From UHGV virus genome UHGV-1366603: a stretch of DNA of 64,000 nucleotides. The stretch is one strand, 5' to 3'. The translations under genes were made by a program, and so were the position numbers. Below are positions 20,650 through 64,000 of the stretch, piece after piece. The stretch comes from a virus. Under the pieces are notes generated by a model that searched no databases, was not told the DNA's origin, and saw only the letters and a list, made by a program, of their open reading frames with translations. Every line of letters starts with the position of its first letter. The first letter of the stretch is position 1.

Positions 20650-20793
20650 ATGATTTCTGTAAAACACAAAAAAGCTATCTTCGCTGTTGTTATCGCTGTT
20701 GTTCTGGGTTGCCTGTACCTGGATATCGACAAAGGCTACGACACTTGCATCGACAACGGTAACTCCGTTGCGCAGTGCACTGGTCGTGGTTAA
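20650..20793 (+). CDS. small single-pass membrane protein (47 aa), highly codon-optimised; missing from ORF track (<60 aa)
   Basis: TAGGAG RBS; MISVKHKKAIFAVVIAVVLGCLYLD… hydrophobic helix; own promoter-like motif and terminator. Confidence 0.7.
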   Translation: MISVKHKKAIFAVVIAVVLGCLYLDIDKGYDTCIDNGNSVAQCTGRG

Positions 20794-50980: not shown

Positions 50981-51208
50981 ATGGAAATCAAACGTATTGT
51001 AACCAAAAACAAACAGATTGTTTACGTCGCAGGCGATAACGAATTCTCGGCGGTAATCAACAGCGAAAATGCGCTCATTATCGGTTATCCGGGTAAAGTT
51101 ATTACGCGCAGTCACCAACGTGTGATTGACAAACTTATCGCAAAAGCGAAAGCGCGTGACGGTGTTGGTTCAGTACAAACCCACACGGGGTTAACGCTGG
51201 CCCTCTAG
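50981..51208 (+). CDS. hypothetical protein (75 aa)
   Basis: ORF with AAGGA RBS. Confidence 0.6.
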   Translation: MEIKRIVTKNKQIVYVAGDNEFSAVINSENALIIGYPGKVITRSHQRVIDKLIAKAKARDGVGSVQTHTGLTLAL

Positions 51209-51247
51209 TCAGCAGGTAATATGACCTCTTAACTGGAGACTTTAATA

Positions 51248-51754
51248 ATGAGTGAGACTCTGGATTTTAATCAGCTCGAACAACACGATTTCGACCTCGG
51301 TGTTCGTGATATCGATGCTGATCATGAAACACGTTGTAAAGAGCTGTTTAACCGTTACGGTCAGCTCATCACCGGTGCCTCTGACGACACCGAATTCAGT
51401 TTAGATGAGTTTGAAAAAGTTCTGTCGTGTTTTATCACTGACTGTCTGGCGAAGAAAGCGTTGCTGGTCGAACTGAACTTAGACTCCGTCGAACCTACTG
51501 ATGCTCACGCCGTGTTGAAAGAGTCCATTATCCCAACTGATGAGATTATGGACACGGTAGCCGGTATTCGCGGTACGTTTGAAACTGCCGTAGAAGAATA
51601 CACGGAACAGCTTCGTGAATCAGGACTGACGTTGTGTGCGCCAGCAGGTGAGCCATTACCGTCCGACGAAGAAACTGAAGAAGCGCGTAGTCGCTTAGCG
51701 CGTTATGTTATTACGTCTATCTTGGTAGATGATCGCGAAGAGAATCTGCTATAA
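51248..51754 (+). CDS. strongly acidic protein (168 aa), candidate DNA mimic
   Basis: GGAGACTT RBS; very high Asp/Glu content. Confidence 0.7.
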   Translation: MSETLDFNQLEQHDFDLGVRDIDADHETRCKELFNRYGQLITGASDDTEFSLDEFEKVLSCFITDCLAKKALLVELNLDSVEPTDAHAVLKESIIPTDEIMDTVAGIRGTFETAVEEYTEQLRESGLTLCAPAGEPLPSDEETEEARSRLARYVITSILVDDREENLL

Positions 51755-51757
51755 GCT

Positions 51758-51797
51758 GCCCCTCTCTCCGTTTGGAGAGAGGGTGTATTTATTTTTA
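51758..51797 (+). terminator. intrinsic terminator
   Basis: GCCCCTCTCTCC-GTTT-GGAGAGAGGG then T-rich tail. Confidence 0.85.
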
Positions 51798-51852
51798 CGC
51801 GTATAGCCGTAGTTATGCACAAGTAAACAAAATTAATTGAGGAAACAATCTG

Positions 51853-52170
51853 ATGTGGTTAAGTGCTATTCACCGTGATTTGCCAAAACGTGACGTGTCG
51901 TTTACTGTTGAGGACGCACCGATTGAGGTAGGCGTCGCTAAATTCGAAAGAATCGAAGAAGGGCAGTTTGTTGTAATGGATGGCAACGACAACGAATTTA
52001 TGTTGTATCATCCAGAAGTGGATACCTCTGAAATTTGTGACGGTGTTCTTTTGTTGTCCTGGCAAAACCAAGAAACTAAAGAATGGATGTGGTGTGTTGC
52101 TAAACCGACAAATGAAGCTGGAACCGCATACGTGTTTGGGGAAATTTATGTCGAACCCGAGCCACACTAA
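51853..52170 (+). CDS. hypothetical protein (105 aa)
   Basis: ORF with GAGGA RBS. Confidence 0.7.
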   Translation: MWLSAIHRDLPKRDVSFTVEDAPIEVGVAKFERIEEGQFVVMDGNDNEFMLYHPEVDTSEICDGVLLLSWQNQETKEWMWCVAKPTNEAGTAYVFGEIYVEPEPH

Positions 52171-52217
52171 TTTCGATATAGCTTCAGCATTGTGTTGTTA
52201 ATGGTCTAAAAAATTTA

Positions 52218-52248
52218 AGATATATTTCATCTATGTGAGAATTCTCAC
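52218..52248 (+). promoter_or_regulatory. promoter-like element with perfect 14-bp palindrome GTGAGAATTCTCAC (52235-52248)
   Basis: AGATATAT… then TGTGAGAATTCTCAC; 24 nt upstream of ATG 52272. Confidence 0.45.
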
Positions 52249-52271
52249 TTAACTAAATGGAGTAATCTAAA

Positions 52272-52541
52272 ATGGCTAAGATTTACATTGTTGAGAAACG
52301 TGCGGGTAATGTTCTTTCCTATTACGAAGAAGGTAAACCTGAAAAAGTTAAAACACTCAAACTCGACGGGTATGAAGTGAAGAGTTTACGCAAAGGTGTG
52401 AAGATTACCTTTAAAGGTTTGGCTCGCGTAAATAACTTACACATTGTTAAGGCCGATGGTACGATGGCTGCGTTAGCGCCTGTCAGTGCTGCGAAAACGA
52501 CAGCCGGTCGTGGCTGCTACGGTAGCAGTCGTAAGATTTAA
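52272..52541 (+). CDS. small basic protein (89 aa), monocistronic unit
   Basis: TGGAG RBS; promoter-like element before and terminator after. Confidence 0.7.
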   Translation: MAKIYIVEKRAGNVLSYYEEGKPEKVKTLKLDGYEVKSLRKGVKITFKGLARVNNLHIVKADGTMAALAPVSAAKTTAGRGCYGSSRKI

Positions 52542-52546
52542 GCAGT

Positions 52547-52588
52547 GCCCCTCTCTCCTAACGGAGAGAGGGTACTTTTATTTTTCTT
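52547..52588 (+). terminator. intrinsic terminator
   Basis: GCCCCTCTCTCC-TAAC-GGAGAGAGGG then T-rich tail; stem identical to terminator 51758. Confidence 0.85.
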
Positions 52589-52599
52589 CGAGGTGCGTG

Positions 52600-53088
52600 A
52601 TGACAACGGTATTAGTAACAAAGGATTACATTTTAGCTGACCGACTTGTGGACTATGCTGGCACAGTTAAAGAATTGCCCAAACTACATAAACACAAAAA
52701 CAAGTTTGTTTTCTACACTGGGGAACGTGTACTGGACACCGAGTTTTGGAAAATATCAATGACCGCTGTTATAGAAAAATATTTAGACGTGGATAAACGC
52801 AAGGAAGTTGAGCCTTTGCTTGTGGATTTTTTCGAAAAAGAGCGAATATTCGATCAGATTGTCATTTTTACGGCTAGAAAAACTCATTGGCTCACATTAG
52901 TAGCAGGTAAGTTTGAAGATCTTGTAATAAATGAAAATGCGGTTTGGGCAACGGGTTCTGGTGGAGGTTTTGCACGGGCTGCTTGGGCGACAGGAATATC
53001 AGAAAAGAAAATTATGCCGTTGGTAGGTTCTATTGATCCGTCTAGCTCGACCACCTATGACTTGTTTTACAGGAAGAGTTTACGATGA
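52600..53088 (+). CDS. HslV/proteasome-beta-like Ntn-hydrolase peptidase candidate (162 aa)
   Basis: Start set at ATG after GAGGTG RBS (track ORF 52486 runs through the terminator); N-terminus MTT…; ENAVWATGSGGGFARAAWATG resembles HslV [21 protein letters not shown]. Confidence 0.5.
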   Translation: MTTVLVTKDYILADRLVDYAGTVKELPKLHKHKNKFVFYTGERVLDTEFWKISMTAVIEKYLDVDKRKEVEPLLVDFFEKERIFDQIVIFTARKTHWLTLVAGKFEDLVINENAVWATGSGGGFARAAWATGISEKKIMPLVGSIDPSSSTTYDLFYRKSLR

Positions 53089-53606
53089 AAATAAATGCGG
53101 TTTTAATTGGCGATGAAATATTCGTGAATACAAAAACACAATATTTGTGTTACGAAGGTATTACTGTAATAGATGAGTATTACGGTAAATACGGTTGGTG
53201 GATTCCATCCCCTAATTCTTTACGATTAGAAGAAGCTTTAACTGCTGAAGAGAACAAACTGGATGATGAATGGACTTATATTAGCTCTGTAATTGATGTT
53301 AGCGGACGAATTAAAGACGTCTACTGGGCTAAAGGTATAGGGTGGCGTGTTACGCTACATCAAGCCACACCGGTAAGATTGTTGTACGACCACACTGACA
53401 CTTCGGAGTTAGCGTTTACCATTGAGACGCTCTCGGTGCGTAAAGATTTAGATAACGTAGGTAAAGGGAAGTGGTCGATTGAACGTATAGAGGAAATTCT
53501 CAGTCACTTTAAAGCCAACAACCAATTTAAACGTTGGTGTACGCTACCTGAGTTAGTAGAAGAGTTGAAAAAGCGGGATTGCAAGCCGCTACCTTTTAAT
53601 CCGTAA
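53085..53606 (+). CDS. hypothetical protein (173 aa), translationally coupled to HslV-like gene
   Basis: ATGA overlap. Confidence 0.7.
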   Translation: MKINAVLIGDEIFVNTKTQYLCYEGITVIDEYYGKYGWWIPSPNSLRLEEALTAEENKLDDEWTYISSVIDVSGRIKDVYWAKGIGWRVTLHQATPVRLLYDHTDTSELAFTIETLSVRKDLDNVGKGKWSIERIEEILSHFKANNQFKRWCTLPELVEELKKRDCKPLPFNP

Positions 53607-53650
53607 CTTTTTACGAATGCAGCTATTTTAATGATTAGGAGAATATAGAG

Positions 53651-54046
53651 ATGACAGCAATACTAGGTGTAATGGCAAGAAAAGCCGACATCGTTGAAAC
53701 GTTTATTGAACAATACAACAACTCGCCGTATACGCGTTTTAGATTACATAAACCGAAGAATAGTACAGAATGGGTTCGTTGGTTCAGGATTTGGGATAAA
53801 ACAATAAGTAAAATTGATCCGTTATTTAGAATAACGGTTGAACCAGCTTATTGGATTGTAATGGAAATTTCGCTATTACGTATTATCGAAAAACGTCCGA
53901 TTGACACTATGACGATGTTTGGGAAAGATACGTATAAAATGTTGACCAACGGTTTTGTGGGTAATGGGGAACACACGTTGTATCAAGCGATGCTGGAAAT
54001 GTGTTTGTTCGATTTAGTTACTTACGAATTGGGGATTTCAAAATGA
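53651..54046 (+). CDS. hypothetical protein (131 aa)
   Basis: TAGGAGAAT RBS. Confidence 0.7.
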   Translation: MTAILGVMARKADIVETFIEQYNNSPYTRFRLHKPKNSTEWVRWFRIWDKTISKIDPLFRITVEPAYWIVMEISLLRIIEKRPIDTMTMFGKDTYKMLTNGFVGNGEHTLYQAMLEMCLFDLVTYELGISK

Positions 54047-54507
54047 ATTGCTTCGAATCTAAAGAAATTGTTGAGTTGTTTAAGCAGCGTGAGAAAACAA
54101 CATTCCGTGACCTGTACGATTCCGATTACCGTCCTCTGTTTGCGGTATTGTTGAAACTGGATAAAGAACCCGAAATCGCACTAGCAGAGGTTCAGCATCA
54201 TCACATCAGTTTCGTGTTAACTGAAAACAAGGAACGTTGGGTAGATGACATACTGGGTCGTATTGCGCTTTTGGAAACACCGCATCGTTGGGAAGTGGTT
54301 ATTCAGAAATCACTCTTCCCGCGTGAAGACATTTTCAACAACTATCGTCCGAAACAGTATTACAACCACGACGGGTCGCCAAAACGTGCTTTCCTGGCAC
54401 CACAACACTTCGTAACCTACGTAACGTTGCGTTACAAAGACACCGTGGTGCCGTTTGACACCTACCTGGAAATGCGTGAGATAATCTTAGGGAAGAATCC
54501 GTCATGA
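54043..54507 (+). CDS. hypothetical protein (154 aa)
   Basis: ATG overlapping previous stop (ATGA); track ORF 54001 over-extends. Confidence 0.65.
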   Translation: MNCFESKEIVELFKQREKTTFRDLYDSDYRPLFAVLLKLDKEPEIALAEVQHHHISFVLTENKERWVDDILGRIALLETPHRWEVVIQKSLFPREDIFNNYRPKQYYNHDGSPKRAFLAPQHFVTYVTLRYKDTVVPFDTYLEMREIILGKNPS

Positions 54508-54986
54508 TTCAATTTTCTGTTGACTCAGAAAGACTGGCGTCATTTAAAGAGCGTGCTCAGACTGCAATCAAAAACGGTTACATTGAGAAAGGTGTTCGTG
54601 ATACTTGTAAACTAATCAACGGCCATCCGCACCTGGCGACAATGTGGAGCTGTGAAGGTCACGGTATGTATTCTAAATCGCCGGGAAACTTGCATATTGT
54701 TTTTGCAACAGATGGTATCGGAAGCCAGCTTCCAATGCAGATTATGTCCGAACTTGCAAAAAGCGATCTGCCCAATTTCTGGAATCTTAGTTTGTGTCGT
54801 CTTTATATACCGGACGCATACACGGATTTGGTATATCTTGAACCTGACTATGGGTTAAACACCGACGACACGTCTTACTGGTCTTGGAAAATCGGATACA
54901 TGTGCTTGATTAATCGTCCGGCATTAATTGAGGCACGACAGGCTCTTTATAAAGCATTTCACACAGTATTAGTTGAGAATAAATAA
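54504..54986 (+). CDS. hypothetical protein (160 aa)
   Basis: ATGA coupling. Confidence 0.7.
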   Translation: MIQFSVDSERLASFKERAQTAIKNGYIEKGVRDTCKLINGHPHLATMWSCEGHGMYSKSPGNLHIVFATDGIGSQLPMQIMSELAKSDLPNFWNLSLCRLYIPDAYTDLVYLEPDYGLNTDDTSYWSWKIGYMCLINRPALIEARQALYKAFHTVLVENK

Positions 54987-55678
54987 TGGCTACCAAACAA
55001 AAGAAACCTCGTAACAAAAAGTATAACCCGAAAGCAGCTGCTAACCGTACTGCACACACCATTGCTGAAAATGCGTTAAACCGCATTACTTTCGTCGGTA
55101 GCTCAATTCGTCCTATCGGTCCGTACGCAGGTCGTGGTTTCCAGTTTACAACGTCGCCGCGTATGCGCATGGCAGCGACCGATATGTTAATCGGTGGTCT
55201 GTTTGACGAACCACGTAACTGGAAGTTATGGGTTGCGCATCTGTACGAAACGGATAATGGTGTACAGGCAGAAACCGTCGTGGCCACGCTTGACGATTAC
55301 ACGTTAAGTGATTTCTGTCAACACGGCGACAAAATCATCAAGTCGCTACGTGAGACAGAAGAAAACTACTTCGGTTACGCTTTCGTTGCTGCGCCTAACG
55401 AACGCTATGATTTCGACCAGGGAGAAGAACGTTTACTGGAAAACTTCATGCATTCTGGACTGTTAGACAAATCCTTACACTTACCTGAAGAAGAACTGAT
55501 GGTTTCGCGTAAGGATATGGTAACGTTGCTGTTAGCCGACCGTGGTCGTTTTGATATCACCGAGCCGCATGTGCGTAAAGTACAGAAACTCGTGGATAAA
55601 GTAGACGAAACTGACCTGGACACTAATGAAGTCGCAACACGTATTCAAAGTGTAGTAAACCAGATTGAGGATTACTAA
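54986..55678 (+). CDS. hypothetical protein (230 aa), basic N-terminus
   Basis: TAATG coupling. Confidence 0.75.
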   Translation: MATKQKKPRNKKYNPKAAANRTAHTIAENALNRITFVGSSIRPIGPYAGRGFQFTTSPRMRMAATDMLIGGLFDEPRNWKLWVAHLYETDNGVQAETVVATLDDYTLSDFCQHGDKIIKSLRETEENYFGYAFVAAPNERYDFDQGEERLLENFMHSGLLDKSLHLPEEELMVSRKDMVTLLLADRGRFDITEPHVRKVQKLVDKVDETDLDTNEVATRIQSVVNQIEDY

Positions 55679-55680
55679 AC

Positions 55681-56211
55681 GTGATAGCACGACTTGTGAG
55701 TTGGTTTAAGCAATGTCGTGCAAAGGCGGTCGAATGGCCGCCTATTACGCATGACGAGAAAGTGGCTCTTTTTTTGAGATATAACAAAGACTTGAAGAGA
55801 TTAGGTGGATTAATGCGCTTAACGGAACGTCAGGTTTTTGCTAAGATTTCGAGCAGCGAGTTGCGTAAAGAAGTAATTCCACACCTATCCTTTTTAGGGC
55901 AGGTTTATGCAATTACGACAGAGGAATTTTTATCAACCCAAGGTAGCGAACGGCCACATATTCGGTTTTCCGTCGTAGGTGAACCTGATACGGTAGGTGA
56001 AATCGATTTTAAGATGCTGTATCGCAGAATAAAAGATGATGGGTTTATACATGTTAAACGATTATCAGAAACTTCTGTGGTGATTTATCATCGCACTGAT
56101 CAGGATTTGTTAGGGTGCGTTATAAGGCTAACAAATTTACGTAGTTTTTACGTTGATTTACTTACAGACTTTTATCCGGAACCTTGGTGTTTTATAGATG
56201 AAAATAAATGA
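55681..56211 (+). CDS. hypothetical protein (176 aa)
   Basis: Apparent GTG start after GAGGA RBS. Confidence 0.6.
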   Translation: MIARLVSWFKQCRAKAVEWPPITHDEKVALFLRYNKDLKRLGGLMRLTERQVFAKISSSELRKEVIPHLSFLGQVYAITTEEFLSTQGSERPHIRFSVVGEPDTVGEIDFKMLYRRIKDDGFIHVKRLSETSVVIYHRTDQDLLGCVIRLTNLRSFYVDLLTDFYPEPWCFIDENK

Positions 56212-56410
56212 CGGATATATCATTTCAGCAATCGTTTCAACTGCGTTGATTGTAGCGATGTTGATGTTCTACGTTAAGACGTCTGACGAATCACGTAGAG
56301 ACTCCCTTTATCGTGAATGTATGTCAGGCACTACTGTAGATAATCCACGCTACGCTGAATTAGTAATGGCGTGTACGGAATACGCTAATCGAATGGGAGG
56401 AGGGAAATGA
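56198..56410 (+). CDS. small membrane-anchored protein (70 aa), paralog of next gene
   Basis: N-terminal hydrophobic helix; LYREC…AELVMAC motif shared with 56407 gene. Confidence 0.6.
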   Translation: MKINDGYIISAIVSTALIVAMLMFYVKTSDESRRDSLYRECMSGTTVDNPRYAELVMACTEYANRMGGGK

Positions 56411-56604
56411 AAATTTGGTTGCCGATTCTAGTTTTTATCGTTATTGCAGGGGCACTCGCAAGTGCTGAGTTAGATAGCCGTACTTTAGAAACGAAACGTG
56501 AATTGTACCAGGACTGTATAAAGGATTACACACCGGGTACAGAGCTTCATGCACAGGCTGTAAAAAGCTGTGCGTTGATGGCTGAATCGCAGACTCGCTC
56601 CTAA
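56407..56604 (+). CDS. small signal-peptide/membrane-anchored protein (65 aa), paralog of previous gene
   Basis: GGAGGG RBS; MKIWLPILVFIVIAGALASA; LYQDC…AQAVKSC motif. Confidence 0.65.
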   Translation: MKIWLPILVFIVIAGALASAELDSRTLETKRELYQDCIKDYTPGTELHAQAVKSCALMAESQTRS

Positions 56605-56978
56605 TGCGTATCTGGACGCTACAACTCGCTAAGTGGCGGTTAGCTAAGCAGAAAGGATTTCACGCAGTGGATATCACTGTGAAGTCAGGTCGAAAGGAAC
56701 TCGCCCCCGACTGGGATTTCCTAATGGCGTATAAATCTTCTGCCAAGGACGCTGCCGCTGAACGTGAGTACACGATAAAGTATTTGTACAAACTCGAACG
56801 ACTGTTAGATACTGATGCCGAAGTTTTAGTGTCATTACTCAGACACGATGACTTGGTTTTGATGTGTTACTGTCCCGTAGGTAAGTTTTGTCATCGTCAC
56901 CTACTGGCGAACAAACTTCAAGAAGTAGGAATGATGTTCGGTATCGACGTTGCGTTGTGTGGAGAATTAACCGAATGA
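56604..56978 (+). CDS. DUF488-like protein (124 aa)
   Basis: LVLMCYCPVGKFCHRHLLA resembles the conserved C.C…CHR motif of DUF488/YeaO-type proteins (from memory). Confidence 0.5.
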   Translation: MRIWTLQLAKWRLAKQKGFHAVDITVKSGRKELAPDWDFLMAYKSSAKDAAAEREYTIKYLYKLERLLDTDAEVLVSLLRHDDLVLMCYCPVGKFCHRHLLANKLQEVGMMFGIDVALCGELTE

Positions 56979-57039
56979 AAAATTTTATCAAAACCTTCCG
57001 AAAATCACCAATCGTTCTTGATTTTTAGGTACAGAATAG

Positions 57040-57088
57040 TCTCCTACCGCCCGATTCTATGGGCGGTAGGTGTTTTATTTTTTTTTGA
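57040..57088 (+). terminator. intrinsic terminator
   Basis: CCTACCGCCC-GATTCTAT-GGGCGGTAGG followed by T-run. Confidence 0.9.
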
Positions 57089-57102
57089 TCTTGGAGGGTT
57101 AA

Positions 57103-57666
57103 GTGGCCACATCTTACGTACCTGATTTGAGTCTGACCTCAGCAGAGCTAGTGGTCGCTTTAATCAATCATGATAACGGGTTACAGCTTACGCTAAACGA
57201 AATACGTATTAGTGGAACTGTAACAAACCCATCCCCAACAACTTCGCGTCGTAACACTATCACTGAAATCAGTAAAATCAGAAAACCGGATGGTGCGTCT
57301 GTTGTGGTTTATTACGACAGACTCGACGCAGATGAAGTATTAACGTATGAACCCATTCTGATTTCGTTAGACGGTACTGAAGACAACGTTCGTGACATTC
57401 TTAGTGTTGTAAATGAATTCTGCGGAACGAACTTACAACCCGAGGATTTACGTGCTTCAGATATCACTTTAGGTAACGATCCCATTTCCGTTAACGTTGC
57501 TGACGATTCTCCTGCCTGGATGAATGCGTTTATGGTGACGTTATTTGATAAAACCGAACGTGCGTTAGCGAACGAAGAAGATGAAATCTTCTGCATCGGT
57601 GACGATAGCGTTCTTACATTCGAGGTTACAGATGGCGACAGCACTGAAGAAGACGAGACTCCATGA
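57103..57666 (+). CDS. hypothetical acidic protein (187 aa), first gene of tail fibre module
   Basis: Apparent GTG start after GGAGGG RBS. Confidence 0.65.
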   Translation: MATSYVPDLSLTSAELVVALINHDNGLQLTLNEIRISGTVTNPSPTTSRRNTITEISKIRKPDGASVVVYYDRLDADEVLTYEPILISLDGTEDNVRDILSVVNEFCGTNLQPEDLRASDITLGNDPISVNVADDSPAWMNAFMVTLFDKTERALANEEDEIFCIGDDSVLTFEVTDGDSTEEDETP

Positions 57667-58093
57667 GCTCGAAAGCTACGCAGGCACACCGCAGGGTGGG
57701 GTACTGCTGTATAGCAAAGACAATAAAGAATATAAAATTGATGTTGATAAGTTAGCCCCGGTTGCGACAGTCACAACGGTTAACGGTGCGAATAATGCAG
57801 CCACGCTGGATTTCAATACCAGCACTGACATTATTCTGGTGTTAAACGATCCCACCACTACAGTGAAGTTCGCAGCCCTTACCAACGTTGCGGAAAATAC
57901 CCGTTTCGAAGTAATGCTAACGTTTAAGCAAGGAACGGGGGCGAATAAAGTAACCTGGCCTGAAAACGTTAAGTGGCCTCACGGTGCACAACCGGTTTTA
58001 TCCTACGCGGCAAATGCGGAGGACACTCTGTCGCTTTATACCCTTGATGGGGGTGCCACCTGGAAAGGTTCTCTTCTTGCAGCGGGTTACTAA
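57632..58093 (+). CDS. tail fibre N-terminal anchor-domain protein (153 aa)
   Basis: Start set at MATALKKTRLHELESYAGTPQGGVLLYSKDNKEYKIDV, which parallels the N-terminus of the 61177 fibre; GAGG RBS. Confidence 0.6.
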   Translation: MATALKKTRLHELESYAGTPQGGVLLYSKDNKEYKIDVDKLAPVATVTTVNGANNAATLDFNTSTDIILVLNDPTTTVKFAALTNVAENTRFEVMLTFKQGTGANKVTWPENVKWPHGAQPVLSYAANAEDTLSLYTLDGGATWKGSLLAAGY

Positions 58094-61000
58094 ATGAGAA
58101 AACATTTTCAGCGTCACGCGATTAGCTACGCGTTATCGTTAGCTTACGGACACCAATCCTTCGTTACCCGGAATACGGGAACGACTCACGACGCGCACAA
58201 CGAACACTATATTCAAAACGAAGAAGGTGTTCTGTCGAATAACCGTCATTTCATTGCTGACACTATGGCGGAATACCAACCGAACGGGGACGCGACGACC
58301 GAGGGTCAGTCGTTACACGTTATTGGTTACTGCCACATGTATATCGCAACGAAAGACGAAAGATGGTTAGATGCGGCGAAACACGCCTGGGATGCGTACA
58401 ACACGTACTTCTACGTCGGACAACCTATTCCGACCACACCCCAGCGTCGGATTTGTAACTGGTTGGTAAACGGGAAAGAACCGGTATTAGCACATTACCC
58501 AATACACCCTACAGAACCTACCCAAGGTGGGTATAAAAGCGTCCCTGTAAGGTTTACAAACGGACAGTGTAAAATACCGCATGGTGCACCGTTCTGGGGA
58601 GAGTATTTGGATACCTTTACGTTTGCGCATCGTGGTCACCCTGCCTGGGAAGCCATTAACGCAGACGTACAGATTATTAAGGAAGACAAAGAAGGGTCAA
58701 TTAATTGGGAAGACGTTTTAACTCACGTTATTACCAATCCTGATAAACCCTACGAGGCCAAAGCCTGGGTTGATTGGCCTACGTTATTAAACAACGCTAC
58801 AGGGTACACCCCGCTTTGGGGTGGCAGTGCAACAAAAGCCCCTAAACACGACGTTGACTGGATAATTGCCTGGACAGGTAACAAAATCCAGGATAGTGAG
58901 ATTATTGAGACAGGATTAGCAGACGCTGATAAAGGTACCGTACAGTTAAAAGACACGCAGTTAAACGGTGTCTATTTGATTAACTACGCGGTAAAACTGC
59001 CTGTCGAACACGGGGGTTACGAGTTTAAACGTAACGAACCGTGGCACAACCGTCCAGTTCACACGCCGTTCTTAGGATCGAAAAACCAATACGGTAACGC
59101 CGCTGATGCTGAACTGTGGTTTATTGACGCCTGTTATTTGCTGTGGCGAATCACGGGTGAAGAGAAATACAAACAAGCATTAGACTGTGCTTTCTACACA
59201 GCACACGAGTACACGTATATTGATGCGGTAGATAAATTCTTCCGTCGTTCTACCGCTGCGGAAACACCGTTTACGGATGGTATTTCGTACGACTTCAATT
59301 ACCCGGACACCGTAAGTGCTACCTACGGCCGTGATGAGAATGGGGATATTACCATCCATGTGCCTGAAGCGGCACAACACTTTATGGAGCAGAAAGCGGT
59401 TCGATTCAGGATTAACAAAGACTCCAAACTACGTGTCACGTACGGCGGGGTTTGTAAGAACGGTGATCCTGTCTACTGTAAAGCAATGGTAAACATTAAC
59501 CCTGTGAAAGCCGACACCGAGGAAGTAAACTGGTACGGCTTAACCTTACCTCAGTCTACGGTAAATACCGTTAAGCAGTACGATATTGACTTAGGCCAAC
59601 TTGCCCGTATCACCACCCCAGAAGGAGAAGACTACCTGATAGCCGACGCCCGTGCGTGTTCGGACTATGGTGGTTGTACGTGGGAAGAACGTTTTGAGAA
59701 CAGCATTTACGACGGTCGCGCGGGTACCGTTATAGAAGCTGAATTTCCTGATGACGGTGCCGGGTTTATTATCGGGTTCTGGTTAACCGCTGAAGAGAAG
59801 GTAAAACCGGTTTCTATTGTCTACCGTGCGGACGCAGATTTTAACCTGCGTTTAGTCGACAGTGATAACTGGCGTTGGTGGTGGATGTTACCCAACACAA
59901 ACAACGAATGGCGTCAGGTAACGTTGAATCCGGATGATGCCACACTTTCCGGTTATCAGCCAGACCACACAGACGACGACCCTAAACCGGCAGCACCGAA
60001 TTTCGATAAGGTGGATCAGGTCACGATTCTCCCTGACTCTACGGTTGACCATGCACATTTTGCCTACTATTGTGTTAACGATGTTCCACCGCTCTTTAAT
60101 AAAGACGACGGTTATATTCTCACCTTCCGTATTGGGTTACGCGGCGGTGGAGAGTATGATGCGAAGGTCGGCGACTGTACGATCAAAGATTACCGATTGG
60201 ATTCGTTAGCGTATTGTCCGGGTACGATACCGTTCTCGAACAACTATTCAGAAGGTTCAGAACAGTTAGGTGCCTGGCACGGGATGCCTTATCCGGGTTA
60301 TCAGTATCCGTTTATGTACACTATCCACAAAGACGACCGGTATAAGCTGTGGTTAGATAACCAGATTCAATTCTTGTACGATTCGCAGTTGGCTTACCAA
60401 CGGCAACTCGGTGAATTAGGGCCCGGTTGTGCAGCGTATATCTGGAACCGTTGGGACAACTACAGCTACGGAGAAGCAGATACCTGGACAACGTTCCATT
60501 GGGGCGACGACCATCCGTGGGCAGGGTATCAACCTCGTGCGTTTCATGCTGCGTGTCGGTGCTGGTACGAACTGAAACTAAGAGGTAAAGAGATTCCTGA
60601 GGCGTTAACAAGCTATATTGAAAACTGGGTGAATTGGCTAGGTGGGTTTGTGGATCGGTTTAACGGACACACCCCTAACGAGTTCCCTACAGCACCTGAT
60701 AAACCCGTTTGGGTGGAAGATGACTTCACCGCACATATGTGTGCGTTGTGGTTAGCAGGCTGTTGTTGGGCATTACTCGCTGGTGCAACTAATCCGAACT
60801 ACGATAAGGTAGTTAATGCGGCAATTAAGGAGTTAGGTGAAGGGTTTACGATTACCTCAATTCCGAATAAGCCGATTAACGGGGCGTGGTCTCCAGCCGC
60901 TCGAGAGTCTTCCGATAACGGAATGGCTTTTGGGTTCTACAGTGGGGAAGCGTTCCGTGCGTTAGGTCTCTACGTTACTTACAAAACCTACGGAGCCAAC

Positions 61001-61099
61001 GCTAATATTTATCGTGACTTAGCGATTGCTGACCACAGTCAAGCGGTCTTAGACGTTACGTTAACGATAGAAGACGATGCATTAAAACCAGAGCAATAA
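58094..61099 (+). CDS. large tail spike/fibre-associated protein (1001 aa), possible polysaccharide-degrading domain
   Basis: ORF starting directly after anchor-domain gene; large aromatic-rich protein next to tail fibre. Confidence 0.75.
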   Translation: MRKHFQRHAISYALSLAYGHQSFVTRNTGTTHDAHNEHYIQNEEGVLSNNRHFIADTMAEYQPNGDATTEGQSLHVIGYCHMYIATKDERWLDAAKHAWDAYNTYFYVGQPIPTTPQRRICNWLVNGKEPVLAHYPIHPTEPTQGGYKSVPVRFTNGQCKIPHGAPFWGEYLDTFTFAHRGHPAWEAINADVQIIKEDKEGSINWEDVLTHVITNPDKPYEAKAWVDWPTLLNNATGYTPLWGGSATKAPKHDVDWIIAWTGNKIQDSEIIETGLADADKGTVQLKDTQLNGVYLINYAVKLPVEHGGYEFKRNEPWHNRPVHTPFLGSKNQYGNAADAELWFIDACYLLWRITGEEKYKQALDCAFYTAHEYTYIDAVDKFFRRSTAAETPFTDGISYDFNYPDTVSATYGRDENGDITIHVPEAAQHFMEQKAVRFRINKDSKLRVTYGGVCKNGDPVYCKAMVNINPVKADTEEVNWYGLTLPQSTVNTVKQYDIDLGQLARITTPEGEDYLIADARACSDYGGCTWEERFENSIYDGRAGTVIEAEFPDDGAGFIIGFWLTAEEKVKPVSIVYRADADFNLRLVDSDNWRWWWMLPNTNNEWRQVTLNPDDATLSGYQPDHTDDDPKPAAPNFDKVDQVTILPDSTVDHAHFAYYCVNDVPPLFNKDDGYILTFRIGLRGGGEYDAKVGDCTIKDYRLDSLAYCPGTIPFSNNYSEGSEQLGAWHGMPYPGYQYPFMYTIHKDDRYKLWLDNQIQFLYDSQLAYQRQLGELGPGCAAYIWNRWDNYSYGEADTWTTFHWGDDHPWAGYQPRAFHAACRCWYELKLRGKEIPEALTSYIENWVNWLGGFVDRFNGHTPNEFPTAPDKPVWVEDDFTAHMCALWLAGCCWALLAGATNPNYDKVVNAAIKELGEGFTITSIPNKPINGAWSPAARESSDNGMAFGFYSGEAFRALGLYVTYKTYGANANIYRDLAIADHSQAVLDVTLTIEDDALKPEQ

Positions 61100-61121
61100 T
61101 AACCCGCTTATAAAAAATATT

Positions 61122-61150
61122 GGGGGGGGGTAAGCTACTCCCCCGATCTT
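61122..61150 (+). other. G9 homopolymer tract plus weak hairpin (possible weak terminator)
   Basis: TGGGGGGGGG TAAGCTACT CCCCC then GATCTTT. Confidence 0.3.
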
Positions 61151-61176
61151 TAGCTCCCGATAGAGAACTTAATATC

Positions 61177-64000
61177 ATGGCGAAAGCGGTAAAGAAAATA
61201 CGATTGCATAATCTTAGGCCGTATACCGGTGATATCGGTGAAGGCGTTTTACTTTTCTCCAAGGATGAGAAAGATTATAAGTTACCAGTCCGTGAGGTTA
61301 TTGCAGATATTGACACCGTACGTAATGCGGTGGCTGATGCACAAACAGCAGCAGCGCAATCACAAGAAGCTGCAACTCAGGCTACACAAGCAAAGAATTT
61401 AGCAGAAACAGCAAAACAACAAACTGACACCGTTGCGGCTACGGTTGCTCAACAAGCACAAACCGTAACAGAAAAAGCAACGGAAGTCGGTACAAAACAC
61501 ACTGAAGTGTTAGCCGCGAAAACGGCGGTAGATACCCAGGTTGTGTCCGTTAATGAGAAAGCGCAAGCGGTAGCGGCAAGTGAGGCCAACGTCACGCAAG
61601 CAGAGACTACTGTTACGAAGAAAGCAGAAGCCGTTGCGACACAAGCCGGTCAAGTTGAACAGTCTCTTACGGCAGTTAACGAAGCTGTCGCGTCGGTAGA
61701 GTCGTCAAAAGCCTCTGTAGAAGCTACAGCAACGCAAGTTACCTCGGACAAAGAAACCGCAGAGAATGCGGCAACCCGTTCTGAGGCAGCCGCTAAGCGA
61801 GCAGAAGAAATTGTTGCACAAGGTACTGTTGATGCAACAACGTCCAGTAAAGGTATCGTTAAACTTAATAATACCTTAACCAGTGACTCGGTTACTGAAG
61901 CTGCTACTCCGTCAACGGTTAAGCAGTTAAATGATGATTTGCAGTTAAAAGCAAACCGTCACAACCCAACCTTTACCGGTACGGTAAAAGCACCAACCCC
62001 TGCTGCGGATTCTAACGACACGAGTGTCTCAACGACTGCATGGGTACGACAAGCGATTGCTGAATTAGTGGACTCTTCTCCCGAGACGTTAGATACGTTA
62101 TCAGAAATTGCAGCCGCGTTAGGAAACGATCCTAACTTTGCGACAACGATAACGAATCAGCTCGCGGGTAAACAGCCGTTAAGTCCGTTACTGACAGCGA
62201 TTGCCGCAGTCACCACCGCTGCAAACAAACTCCCTTACTTTACCGGTAGTAATCAGGTAGGGTTAGCGGATTTCACCTCGACCGCACGCGATTTATTAGC
62301 AAAAGGGTCGACGGCCGATATCATTAGCTTCCTGGGTTTGAAAACTACCGTCGATAAAGCTGCGGGGGCGATGCAGCGCAATTCTAATGGTGCAGATATT
62401 CCTGACAAAGCCACCTTCGCGAAGAATATTGGATTGTCAGCAGAGACGTATCTGAAGTTTAATGGGGAGATGGCAGTAGATGCAGATATCAACACCTTCG
62501 GCCCAGTCGAAGCGTTTATGGGTGTTTGGTCTAAAGCCACGTCTACGAATGCAACAATTGCAAAGAACTTCCCGGAAGATGATGCAGTTGGTTACTTAGA
62601 AGTATTCAAAGCAGGTAACTACAGCGGAAGTCAACGTTTTACCATACGTAACGGTAACGTCTATACTCGTCGTTTAACAGGAACCTGGAACGGTACTAAC
62701 GGCCCTTGGTCACCCTGGAGAATGACAACCACCGCGAACCGTCCGCTCTCTACCACTATTGACCTTAACACCTTAGGTGGTGTTGAACACATGGGTCAGT
62801 GGCGTAACTCCAGTTCTTCTCTTGCGACGTTCGATCGTCATTATCCCGAAGAAGGTGGTAATGCTCAAGGTGTGTTAGAAGTAATGGAAGGTGGTCTCTA
62901 CGGACGTATGCAACGTTACACCACTCGTCGTGGTACGATGTATATCCGTGGGTTGACTGCGACTTGGGATGCGTCTAATCCGCAGTGGGAAGACTGGATT
63001 CAAGTTGGGTATCAGGTAGACGGTGCCTACTATAAGGGTAGCTTTAATAACTTAACTAAACCCGGTCGTTTTAGTGTTACCGGTGAGGCTACTGACGGAC
63101 CGTTAACAGGGCCTTCTGGTGAAACTTTGTTAGGTGTCTGTGAAGTCACCCTGCGCTTAGACGGTGTAGGTGTCGAACAAAATTACACCACTTACGGTAC
63201 AGGTGCTATTTATAAAGGTCGTAAGTTCCATCGTATCCGTACGGGGAATGTCTGGAGCGAGTGGCGTGAAGTTTATACGTCTAGTTCATTAGCGATGCTT
63301 TTAGGAATCGGTGGAGTTGCAGCTAAGGTCGATCCGTTGGACTGGCAAACCTACGACTTCGTTCCTGGACAGATGTTAACGACACCGTTGAACACCATGA
63401 AAAACATTCCTGCGGGAATGGATTGGGGTGTGATCAACGGTAACTTAGTTAACATCCTTGTAGGTCCGTCTGACGACACTGGTACCGGCCGCAGTATGCT
63501 GGTTTGGCGTAGCACGGTGTCTACTGCCAACTATCGCTTCTTTGCGGTACGTATCGCCGGTGAGAAGGGTAGTCGTACGATTACACCACGCCAGATGCCT
63601 GTATTGAACGCAGCGCACACCTGGGCAGAGAAACAGACCTTTGCAAAAGGGTTAGCAGGTGAGTTAACAGGCAATGCTTCAACCGCCACTAAATTAAAGA
63701 CGGCACGTAGAATTGGTGGGGTCGCCTTCGACGGTAGCGGCGATGTTAACCTCCCAGGTGTTAACCAACAAGGTAATCAAAACACCACGGGTAACGCCGC
63801 GACAGCCACTAAACTTCAAACTGCCAGAAATATTAACGGTGTGAGATTCGATGGTTCTGCTGACATCAATATCAACACCCTGGTGGGTCGTGGTCGGGTT
63901 ACCGCTCTAACCGGTTCAAACAAAGGTACACCTGGTATTCAAATGTACGAAGTTTACAATAACGGTTATCCAACCGCTTATGGTAACTTACTGCATTTGG
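61177..64000 (+). CDS. tail fibre protein, 3'-truncated at window edge
   Basis: Not in ORF track (no stop in window); Ala/Thr/Gln-rich coiled-coil, SSKGIVKLNN…ATPSTVKQLND and NPTFTGTVKAPTPAADSNDTSVSTTAWVRQAI tail-fibre motifs, two tail-fibre repeats near 63673-63870. Confidence 0.85.
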   Translation, partial: MAKAVKKIRLHNLRPYTGDIGEGVLLFSKDEKDYKLPVREVIADIDTVRNAVADAQTAAAQSQEAATQATQAKNLAETAKQQTDTVAATVAQQAQTVTEKATEVGTKHTEVLAAKTAVDTQVVSVNEKAQAVAASEANVTQAETTVTKKAEAVATQAGQVEQSLTAVNEAVASVESSKASVEATATQVTSDKETAENAATRSEAAAKRAEEIVAQGTVDATTSSKGIVKLNNTLTSDSVTEAATPSTVKQLNDDLQLKANRHNPTFTGTVKAPTPAADSNDTSVSTTAWVRQAIAELVDSSPETLDTLSEIAAALGNDPNFATTITNQLAGKQPLSPLLTAIAAVTTAANKLPYFTGSNQVGLADFTSTARDLLAKGSTADIISFLGLKTTVDKAAGAMQRNSNGADIPDKATFAKNIGLSAETYLKFNGEMAVDADINTFGPVEAFMGVWSKATSTNATIAKNFPEDDAVGYLEVFKAGNYSGSQRFTIRNGNVYTRRLTGTWNGTNGPWSPWRMTTTANRPLSTTIDLNTLGGVEHMGQWRNSSSSLATFDRHYPEEGGNAQGVLEVMEGGLYGRMQRYTTRRGTMYIRGLTATWDASNPQWEDWIQVGYQVDGAYYKGSFNNLTKPGRFSVTGEATDGPLTGPSGETLLGVCEVTLRLDGVGVEQNYTTYGTGAIYKGRKFHRIRTGNVWSEWREVYTSSSLAMLLGIGGVAAKVDPLDWQTYDFVPGQMLTTPLNTMKNIPAGMDWGVINGNLVNILVGPSDDTGTGRSMLVWRSTVSTANYRFFAVRIAGEKGSRTITPRQMPVLNAAHTWAEKQTFAKGLAGELTGNASTATKLKTARRIGGVAFDGSGDVNLPGVNQQGNQNTTGNAATATKLQTARNINGVRFDGSADININTLVGRGRVTALTGSNKGTPGIQMYEVYNNGYPTAYGNLLHL
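63673..63870 (+). repeat. two tandem phage tail-fibre repeats (protein level)
   Basis: NASTATKLKTARRIGGVAFDGSGDVNL and NAATATKLQTARNINGVRFDGSADINI. Confidence 0.7.

Follow-up and report, generated by a model that had tools for sequence, protein, structure and literature searches.

Two small genes, here called sp1 and sp2, which lie within the window analysed (a 64,000-nucleotide stretch of virus genome UHGV-1366603), are probable paralogs, judging from the weak but significant likeness of the domains that follow their hydrophobic N-termini. They belong to one narrow family of mini-proteins whose sequences place an invariant Cys pair on a predicted membrane anchor, signal peptide or lipobox; this family is genuine, previously unnamed and lineage-restricted. 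The window itself is that of an SPN3US-like nucleus-forming jumbo phage, in which the two genes occupy a variable slot between conserved homologs of gp115 and gp120 of Salmonella phage SPN3US. They share an operon with the DUF488 gene that follows them, apparently as neighbours and not as parts of a functional unit. As to their role, the reading that we favour, at a probability of about 0.4, is that sp1 and sp2 are accessory proteins acting in the envelope, of the kind that serves exclusion.

Conservation, kinship and architecture of the two small proteins

The ORFs of 70, 65 and 124 residues described in the initial annotation are present as claimed (Table 1), and so are the overlaps through which they had been called coupled: the TGA of sp1 overlaps the ATG of sp2 within an ATGA at 56407-56410 (4 nt), and the TAA of sp2 shares one base, 56604, with the ATG of the 124-aa gene in a TAATG (1 nt). 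A strong GGGAGGAGGG ribosome-binding site precedes sp2, and inspection of the sequence before the 124-aa DUF488 gene revealed no obvious site of this kind. The initial annotation depended on the small ORFs being conserved in related genomes, and they are: the 70-65-124 aa layout recurs with identical overlaps in L003, L004, L006, L007, L014-L017 and L024, and all relatives examined keep the exact lengths of sp1 and sp2, both Cys and the overlaps, save for a small number of calls that are truncated or begin at another start. Homologs of sp1, 70 aa long and 73-99% identical, occur on contigs as long as ~230 kb. Across seven genomes, whose synonymous divergence reaches ~1.8, dN/dS values (Nei-Gojobori) are 0.06-0.39 for sp1, 0.03-0.30 for sp2 and 0.05-0.20 for the DUF488 gene. 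Because their lengths and overlaps are conserved and selection on them is purifying, sp1 and sp2 are real genes. The Cys and core residues are invariant among the homologs of both; in the sp2 alignment, residues 33-63 are almost invariant, with variation in the signal peptide and at residues 20-32.

The two 23-residue strings from which the initial annotation derived a shared pattern, R-x-LY-x-C-(17)-C, are exact, and the common Cys pair at x17 stands; the first part of the pattern has to be corrected, its proper form being L-Y-x2-C-x17-C rather than LY-x-C (L37 Y38, C41 and C59 in sp1; L33 Y34, C37 and C55 in sp2), with the Arg three residues upstream of LY in sp1 and two in sp2. The paralogy proposed on this basis is probable: BLASTP aligns the two proteins at E 4e-4 with 9/29 identities and both Cys in register, and the post-hydrophobic domains by themselves at E 8e-5; their alignment score of 44 compares with 20.5 +/- 4.2 for shuffled sequences (5000 shuffles, p ~8e-4); and hhalign of the two families returns a P value of 4.6e-4, with a probability of only 33%.

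Beyond this pair, similar proteins, all annotated as hypothetical, are encoded by other phages: SPN3US gp116 (SPN3US_0116, 69 aa) and gp118 (SPN3US_0118, 110 aa), Erwinia phage Asesino gp134 and phiEaH2 AFQ96586. Their genes share the genome slot of sp1 and sp2, between the gp115 homolog and DUF488, and the gp116/gp118-like proteins have a common build with sp1 and sp2, in which a hydrophobic N-terminus is followed by [L/F]-[Y/F]-x2-C and, 17-21 residues later, a second C. SPN3US gp116 has a membrane anchor and C-x17-C spacing, and gp118 and Asesino gp134 have a signal peptide. In an alignment of nine domains both Cys and the aromatic position are in register, and the members follow the family pattern of an N-terminal export or anchor segment and then [LF]-[YF]-x2-C-x17-21-C in two helices; domain identity between sp1/sp2 and the gp116/gp118 group is only ~25-30%, and the gp118-like proteins differ from sp1 and sp2 in their 21-residue Cys spacing and C-terminal extension.

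The links between these groups run mainly via P0087, a 70-aa metagenomic lipoprotein with the lipobox LSAC and C-x18-C spacing, which matches sp1 at E 2e-10, sp2 at 5.5e-5, Asesino gp134 at 7e-8 and SPN3US gp118 at 1e-3; sp2 with gp116 and sp1 with Asesino gp134 are also weakly linked directly. An E value of 9e-5 for SPN3US gp116 is listed in our analysis as the sp2-gp116 link and elsewhere as that between P0087 and gp116. Among 1010 local ORFs, a profile of sp1 and sp2 matched gp116 at E 6.8e-5, and an exhaustive HMMER search with the same two proteins through 1.84 billion representatives returned P0087 at E 8.9e-4; its other outside match, P0086, is a spurious repeat protein. Direct comparison of sp1 or sp2 with SPN3US gp118 was not significant, nor was that of the sp1+sp2 profile with the gp118 family, so that gp118 is counted as a member through its link to P0087.

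All the family members found, except P0087, come from Seoulvirus, Erskinevirus or the window's clade. Neither sp1 nor sp2 has a meaningful match in Pfam, PHROGs, NCBIfam or PADLOC; no PHROG matches either at E <= 0.1, exclusion, holin, antiholin and spanin families included, and the gp118-like branch alone has a PHROG, of the function-unknown category. Searches with tblastn against 50,697 phage records gave no match, and a word-indexed search of 5.8 billion proteins with the sp1+sp2 alignment, repeated with gp116 and P0087 added, gave orthologs only. As it stands, the result is mainly one of annotation, adding a small lineage-restricted family with one member unannotated in RefSeq: record NZ_CP173450.1, an E. 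coli 'plasmid', annotates sp2 and leaves out sp1, though its ORF is intact.

The N-terminal segments of the two proteins differ in kind. In sp1 a hydrophobic helix of 20 residues (~residues 7-26), which lacks a cleavage motif and is probably an uncleaved membrane anchor, precedes a 44-residue domain with the invariant C41 and C59. An AlphaFold2 model of sp1 (pLDDT 79) has one helix, 3-41, continuing from the membrane segment to C41 at its end, a 10-residue loop and a second helix, 52-66, with C59 in its middle; Foldseek found no fold match to this model among viral structures (BFVD) at E <= 0.001. The N-terminus of sp2 reads by inspection as a Sec-type signal peptide, MKIWLPILVFIVIAGALASA|ELD, with a basic N-region (MK), a hydrophobic core (IWLPILVFIVIAGAL) and small residues at -3 and -1 (ASA|E), for which homologs have ANA, AKA or, less typically, ATV; a 45-residue domain with the invariant C37 and C55 follows. 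Export to the envelope, which the initial annotation had suggested, is therefore plausible, given the predicted signal peptide of sp2 (ASA|E) and relatives with a predicted signal peptide (SPN3US gp118, MKKVLVLLGALVAPMVAHA|A) or lipobox (P0087, LSAC). By these signals, at least three members of the family would export the domain; sp1 may be exported as well, and a disulfide may join the two Cys. An invariant Cys pair would fit an oxidising compartment.

Genomic setting of the variable slot

Although megablast found no near match to the region in 50,697 phage records, a nucleotide comparison at lower stringency aligned it at ~70% identity with SPN3US and its relatives. The gene order of SPN3US is matched, with homologs of gp114 and gp115 leading into a differing gene set and then into gp120 (DUF488), gp122 (DUF7941), gp123 and gp124 (tail). 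Close relatives, at 90-96% identity, are circular 222-kb 'plasmids' deposited under E. coli 98232 and Enterobacter ludwigii; they turn up, too, among assemblies of Salmonella, Shigella and metagenomes, as contigs of 220-230 kb.

Table 1. Coordinates of the genes and hairpins discussed, in window positions
Feature	Position	Strand	Basis	Remarks
Upstream terminator-like hairpin	52546..52585	+	terminator scan	scan hit 52549-52572
176-aa gene	55681..56211	+	ORF	
sp1, 70 aa	56198..56410	+	ORF	
sp2, 65 aa	56407..56604	+	ORF	
DUF488-N3a protein, 124 aa	56604..56978	+	homolog of SPN3US gp120, phiKZ gp151	
Intrinsic-terminator-like hairpin	57043..57090	+	terminator scan and sequence	scan hit 57043-57070; 11-bp stem, 8 G-C pairs, then T-run

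Seven genes in succession abut or overlap between 54001 and 56978, and the two hairpins of Table 1 enclose a unit of about nine genes, whose 3' end is the trio of sp1, sp2 and the DUF488 gene. The downstream hairpin, a strong terminator by its sequence, appears to end the operon that carries the three genes; the gene beyond it begins at 57103 and encodes a DUF7941 virion protein. The upstream hairpin, nearly identical to another at 51757-51796, probably marks the 5' boundary of their transcription unit. Scans of 51000-58500 with Rfam and for repeats returned nothing relevant.

Directly upstream of sp1, and overlapping its start by 14 nt, lies a 176-aa gene that is confined to the window's clade and forms the most diverged part of the slot, with a nucleotide identity to relatives of 0.49-0.85 against 0.9-0.97 in the flanks. 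It has no match in Pfam, PHROG, NCBIfam or PADLOC, and tblastn found none in the 50,697 phage records. The dip in identity relative to both flanks extends over 55650-56550 and thus takes in this gene, sp1 and sp2. In SPN3US the same place is held by gp116, gp117, gp118 and gp119, of which gp117 is a prohead-protease paralog (PMC5694885); the 176-aa gene was considered as its counterpart and rejected, the sequences not being similar. A PP-loop enzyme identity for gp119 was likewise set aside, the motif having been seen by eye only, with no Pfam or NCBIfam match. The SPN3US literature searched mentions no function for gp116, gp118 or gp120. The assignment of sp1 and sp2 to a variable slot follows from this dip together with the occurrence of DUF488 without them, its separation from sp-like genes in SPN3US and the differing histories of the genes, which are taken up below.

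Candidate roles in the envelope

In the mechanism that we propose, sp1 and sp2 would be two diverged copies of one two-helix domain of ~40 residues with an invariant Cys pair, which sp1 would keep on an uncleaved N-terminal membrane anchor and sp2 would export behind a cleavable signal peptide. Both would act as accessory proteins within the infected cell's periplasm or at its inner membrane, for example by blocking a second infection or tuning the timing of lysis, and would do so independently of the DUF488 enzyme, whose gene would simply come last in their shared operon. An accessory role in host interaction is suggested by the variability of the slot and the exchange of its genes between relatives, as is usual for genes of this type; small hypothetical exported proteins are common in the variable slots of large phages. 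The target, moreover, may be one that stays constant when tail fibres change: sp1 has two allele types, which are not distributed in step with the two types of tail-fibre module, and this independence, together with the near invariance of the domain core, makes a receptor-specific blocker unlikely and a conserved target likelier.

A working analogy, and only that, is provided by Spackle (gp61.3) and Imm of T4, small superinfection-exclusion proteins of a lytic myovirus, one of them periplasmic and soluble and the other membrane-bound; Spackle also carries a disulfide. Their counterparts here, sp1 and sp2, are about half the size of these proteins and are not members of their families; neither resembles Spackle, Imm or RI at PHROG E <= 0.1, nor does the sp1 model at BFVD fold E <= 0.001. 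Action in the envelope would offer a handle on superinfection and lysis timing in SPN3US-like nucleus-forming phages, about which little is known. A wider version of the proposal is unlikely: sp1, sp2, gp116 and the gp118-like proteins would all be periplasmic Cys-pair mini-proteins, an undescribed family of the enterobacterial nucleus-forming jumbo phages, that alter the envelope so as to exclude related jumbo phages or to sense secondary infection and delay lysis. If true, no factor that excludes phages or inhibits lysis at the level of the envelope would have been identified before them in this phage group.

Should one or both proteins instead be lysis-timing regulators, they would resemble T4 RI, a small exported antiholin of a large myovirus, and would attach to the phage holin on its periplasmic side so as to delay or tune lysis. 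Their small size and probable export would suit such a part, as would two properties of phiKZ (PMC12894885): its lysis slows down at high multiplicity, a hint of lysis inhibition in the group, and its holin has a single TMD and, in the periplasm, a small domain. We nevertheless regard this as unlikely. Homology to T4 RI is lacking, as are matches to antiholin or holin PHROGs, and the hydrophobic core of sp2 is like that of a normal cleavable signal rather than a weakly hydrophobic, releasable anchor. The lysis cassette of phiKZ comprises gp141, gp141.1, gp142, gp143 and gp144 (PMC12894885); none of these is homologous to sp1 or sp2, which adjoin no holin, endolysin or spanin gene. A membrane-segment scan of the window's small ORFs picked out only sp1, sp2 and a 47-aa ORF at 20650-20793, and a scan for a lysis cassette that covered the window and the first 50 kb of a close relative (222 kb) found neither a holin nor a spanin pair; the GH108 lysozyme-type gene of the close relative NZ_CP173450.1 is ~20 kb distant.

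Placement of the Cys domain in the periplasm presupposes an orientation that the positive-inside rule leaves ambiguous for sp1, with one K/R on the N-side of the hydrophobic segment and four K/R plus four D/E among the 15 residues on its C-side; were the C-terminus cytoplasmic, the periplasmic reading would fail for this protein. In that case sp1 and SPN3US gp116 would insert N-out and their Cys domain would serve, in the cytoplasm, a purpose that has nothing to do with the envelope, for instance as a membrane tether for procapsid assembly at the inner membrane. The excess of K/R on the C-side in both proteins slightly favours this arrangement, but the basic residues are balanced by acidic ones, the homologous domain is, by its predicted signals, clearly exported in sp2, the gp118-like proteins and P0087, and an invariant Cys pair is suited to an oxidising compartment. 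A cytoplasmic domain in these anchored members is distinctly unlikely.

The DUF488 gene and the overlapping gene layout

The 124-aa protein had been associated with DUF488 on account of its C.C...CHR motif, and an HMM search bears this out, with 45.5 bits for PF22751 (DUF488-N3a; gathering cut-off 27, E 1.1e-11) over residues 25-107, which align with positions 34-116 of the 118 in the model, that is, its C-terminal two-thirds. The generic PF04343 scores 18.5 bits, under its cut-off of 22.2. The residues C88, C90, C96, H97 and R98 (C-x-C-x5-C-H-R) are invariant across 40 homologs that are 35-59% identical, and PF22751, described as 'Active DUF488-N3 subclade', is found on nearly all of the 120 homologs listed from 403 found. 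The protein probably has a compact alpha/beta fold, and DUF488 may belong to the rhodanese-phosphatase superfamily, which would imply a Rossmann-like alpha/beta fold with an active-site Cys loop after the central strand and a likeness in fold to phosphatases or rhodaneses; a sequence search of the PDB with the DUF488 profile gave no match. Because no membrane segment was detected in it, the protein is probably not exported. Homologs occur in 291 phage records (tblastn), including phiKZ-like phages, PhiPA3, where the homolog is gp174, Goslar, CR5 and Simmy50; phiKZ gp151 is 39% identical. A match to 'gp151' in the literature was discarded, as it concerned phage PCH45 and not phiKZ.

That this enzyme and the two small membrane proteins cooperate as a three-gene set, as the initial annotation had supposed, is very unlikely. 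The arrangement itself invites the idea: the genes are adjacent with overlaps of 4 nt and 1 nt, the lack of an obvious ribosome-binding site before DUF488 may make its translation depend on sp2, the layout is conserved across the window's clade, and in Asesino, L021 and L022, too, DUF488 is preceded by small membrane genes, though of different kinds. Overlaps are, however, general in this operon, and partners of this sort would occupy different compartments. The DUF488 gene is also conserved without the small genes. At five loci, those of phiKZ, PhiPA3, Goslar, CR5 and Simmy50, it has unrelated neighbours and no sp-like genes, and in SPN3US gp117 and gp119 intervene between the sp-like genes (gp116 and gp118) and DUF488. 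The histories of the genes also differ, dS between the window and L003 being 1.24 for sp1 and 0.12 for the adjacent DUF488 gene. The latter is widely conserved in jumbo phages, and what connects it with the small genes is its position; as a lead to the function of DUF488-N3a, its overlap with a gp119-like gene, which recurs in other genera, may serve better than the small membrane proteins.

The layout of sp1 and sp2, a gene for a membrane-anchored protein whose end overlaps the start of one for a small exported protein, recalls that of i-spanin and o-spanin, so that sp1 might be a mini i-spanin, or else a single-TMD holin, with sp2 as its partner; the Cys in both could form intermolecular disulfides, and the related P0087 is a lipoprotein whose gene follows one for an 83-aa TMD protein. 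Such an effector role is highly improbable. The defining feature of an o-spanin, the lipobox Cys, is missing from sp2 (..GALASA|ELD..), no homolog having a Cys at the cleavage site; some have one two residues beyond it (ASAEC), which is not a lipobox. In sp1 the TMD is followed by only 44 residues, modelled by AlphaFold2 as two short helices, which seems too short for the periplasm, the periplasmic domains of i-spanins typically comprising ~100 residues or more. Lacking a lipobox Cys in sp2 and a longer soluble part in sp1, the two proteins are not spanins. The holin variant has in its favour the one TMD of sp1, against which stand the absence of a charged cytoplasmic tail, of a holin PHROG or Pfam match and of an adjacent endolysin.

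Finally, the idea that sp1 and sp2 are chance ORFs or decaying remnants, which the missing RefSeq annotation of sp1 and the absence of any family match might suggest, is already refuted by the retention of their exact length over dS values of up to ~1.8 at a dN/dS of ~0.1, alongside their invariant Cys and core residues and the strong ribosome-binding site of sp2.

Genes flanking DUF488-N3a in related phages

In SPN3US (locus L001) and three other loci (L009, L021 and L027), the DUF488-N3a gene is immediately preceded by a gene for a protein of 335-371 aa resembling SPN3US gp119, and the two genes overlap in SPN3US, Asesino, phiEaH2, L021 and CR5. The gp119-like protein has no Pfam or NCBIfam match; its N-terminus looks like a PP-loop motif (SFSAGLDS, TGGVDS or TGGLDS), and it may be a PP-loop protein. 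The window lacks a gp119-like gene. As a lead to what DUF488-N3a does, the gp119-like protein may be more useful than the small membrane genes.

On the other side of DUF488, three loci (L006, L014 and L016) carry a homolog of SPN3US gp117, a diverged paralog of the prohead protease (PMC5694885); the homology was assigned by visual inspection of the N-terminal residues. The window lacks this gene, and DUF488 is followed there by the terminator. Elsewhere in the window, a pair of near-identical terminator-like hairpins lies 789 nt apart, with one short gene block between them.

From about position 57600 of the window onward (57600-64000), the relatives L003, L006, L016 and L017 have a different module in place of the tail-fibre and tail-protein genes; in L014, L015 and L024 the module is of the same type as in the window. 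This is a swap of the host-range module immediately 3' of the operon that ends with DUF488 and the two small Cys-pair proteins, sp1 (70 aa) and sp2 (65 aa).

Coordinates of features in the window and in other loci
Feature	Source	Coordinates	Strand	Remarks
Terminator-like hairpin pair	window	51757-51796; 52546-52585		CCCTCTCTCC..GGAGAGAGGG with T-run
gp119-like gene	L001	3037-4044		SPN3US gp119
gp119-like gene	L009	2049-3164		
gp119-like gene	L021	4040-5074		
gp119-like gene	L027	1995-3035		
gp117 homolog	L006	4569-5006		directly 3' of DUF488
gp117 homolog	L014	5354-5809		directly 3' of DUF488
gp117 homolog	L016	5354-5806		directly 3' of DUF488
Two-segment small proteins	L009	1587-1763; 3835-4053		
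Two-segment small proteins	L010	1488-1685; 3794-4003		
Two-segment small protein	L021	3784-4017		
Two-segment small protein	L022	4745-4984		
47-aa ORF	window	20650-20793	+	in intergenic gap
P0087 locus	L013	551-1011		Logan SRR23073582 contig, 2.5 kb

Small membrane-type proteins

Other genera encode small proteins that are holin-like in size and shape (58-79 aa, each with two hydrophobic segments) beside the gp119 / DUF488 genes, where they replace the Cys-pair proteins or occur alongside them. The only small membrane-type ORFs in the window are sp1, sp2 and a 47-aa ORF, the last of which is hydrophobic at its N-terminus and has two cysteines besides that of a possible lipobox (VLGC).

The sole relative of the Cys-pair domain found outside jumbo phages is P0087, a metagenomic 70-aa lipoprotein; the contig that encodes it is GC-rich and carries small genes that overlap one another. 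Upstream of P0087 lies the gene for an 83-aa protein that has several cysteines and a single hydrophobic segment; as read from the sequence, a putative methyltransferase-like gene also precedes it.

Close relatives in bacterial assemblies and database records

Over 55600-57200, the window shares 96% nucleotide identity with NZ_CP173450.1, from an E. coli isolate of human urine, and 90% with NZ_CP134650.1, from an Enterobacter ludwigii isolate of a gull, both deposited as circular 222-kb 'plasmids'. Close relatives are also present in Salmonella and Shigella assemblies, as contigs of 220-230 kb. These records suggest that the phage of the window, an SPN3US-like jumbo phage, travels with bacterial isolates.

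Six proteins of Salmonella phages SPFM5, 9, 10, 15 and 20 (P0092-P0094, P0140, P0143 and P0213) contain gp116 and gp120 sequences that are seemingly scrambled, with the order of segments permuted, and are probably artefacts of assembly or annotation. In NZ_CP173450.1, the sp1 ortholog is an intact ORF of 70 codons (L024 3599-3811; about 55520-55732 of the record) that the RefSeq annotation leaves uncalled, the adjoining sp2 ortholog being called.
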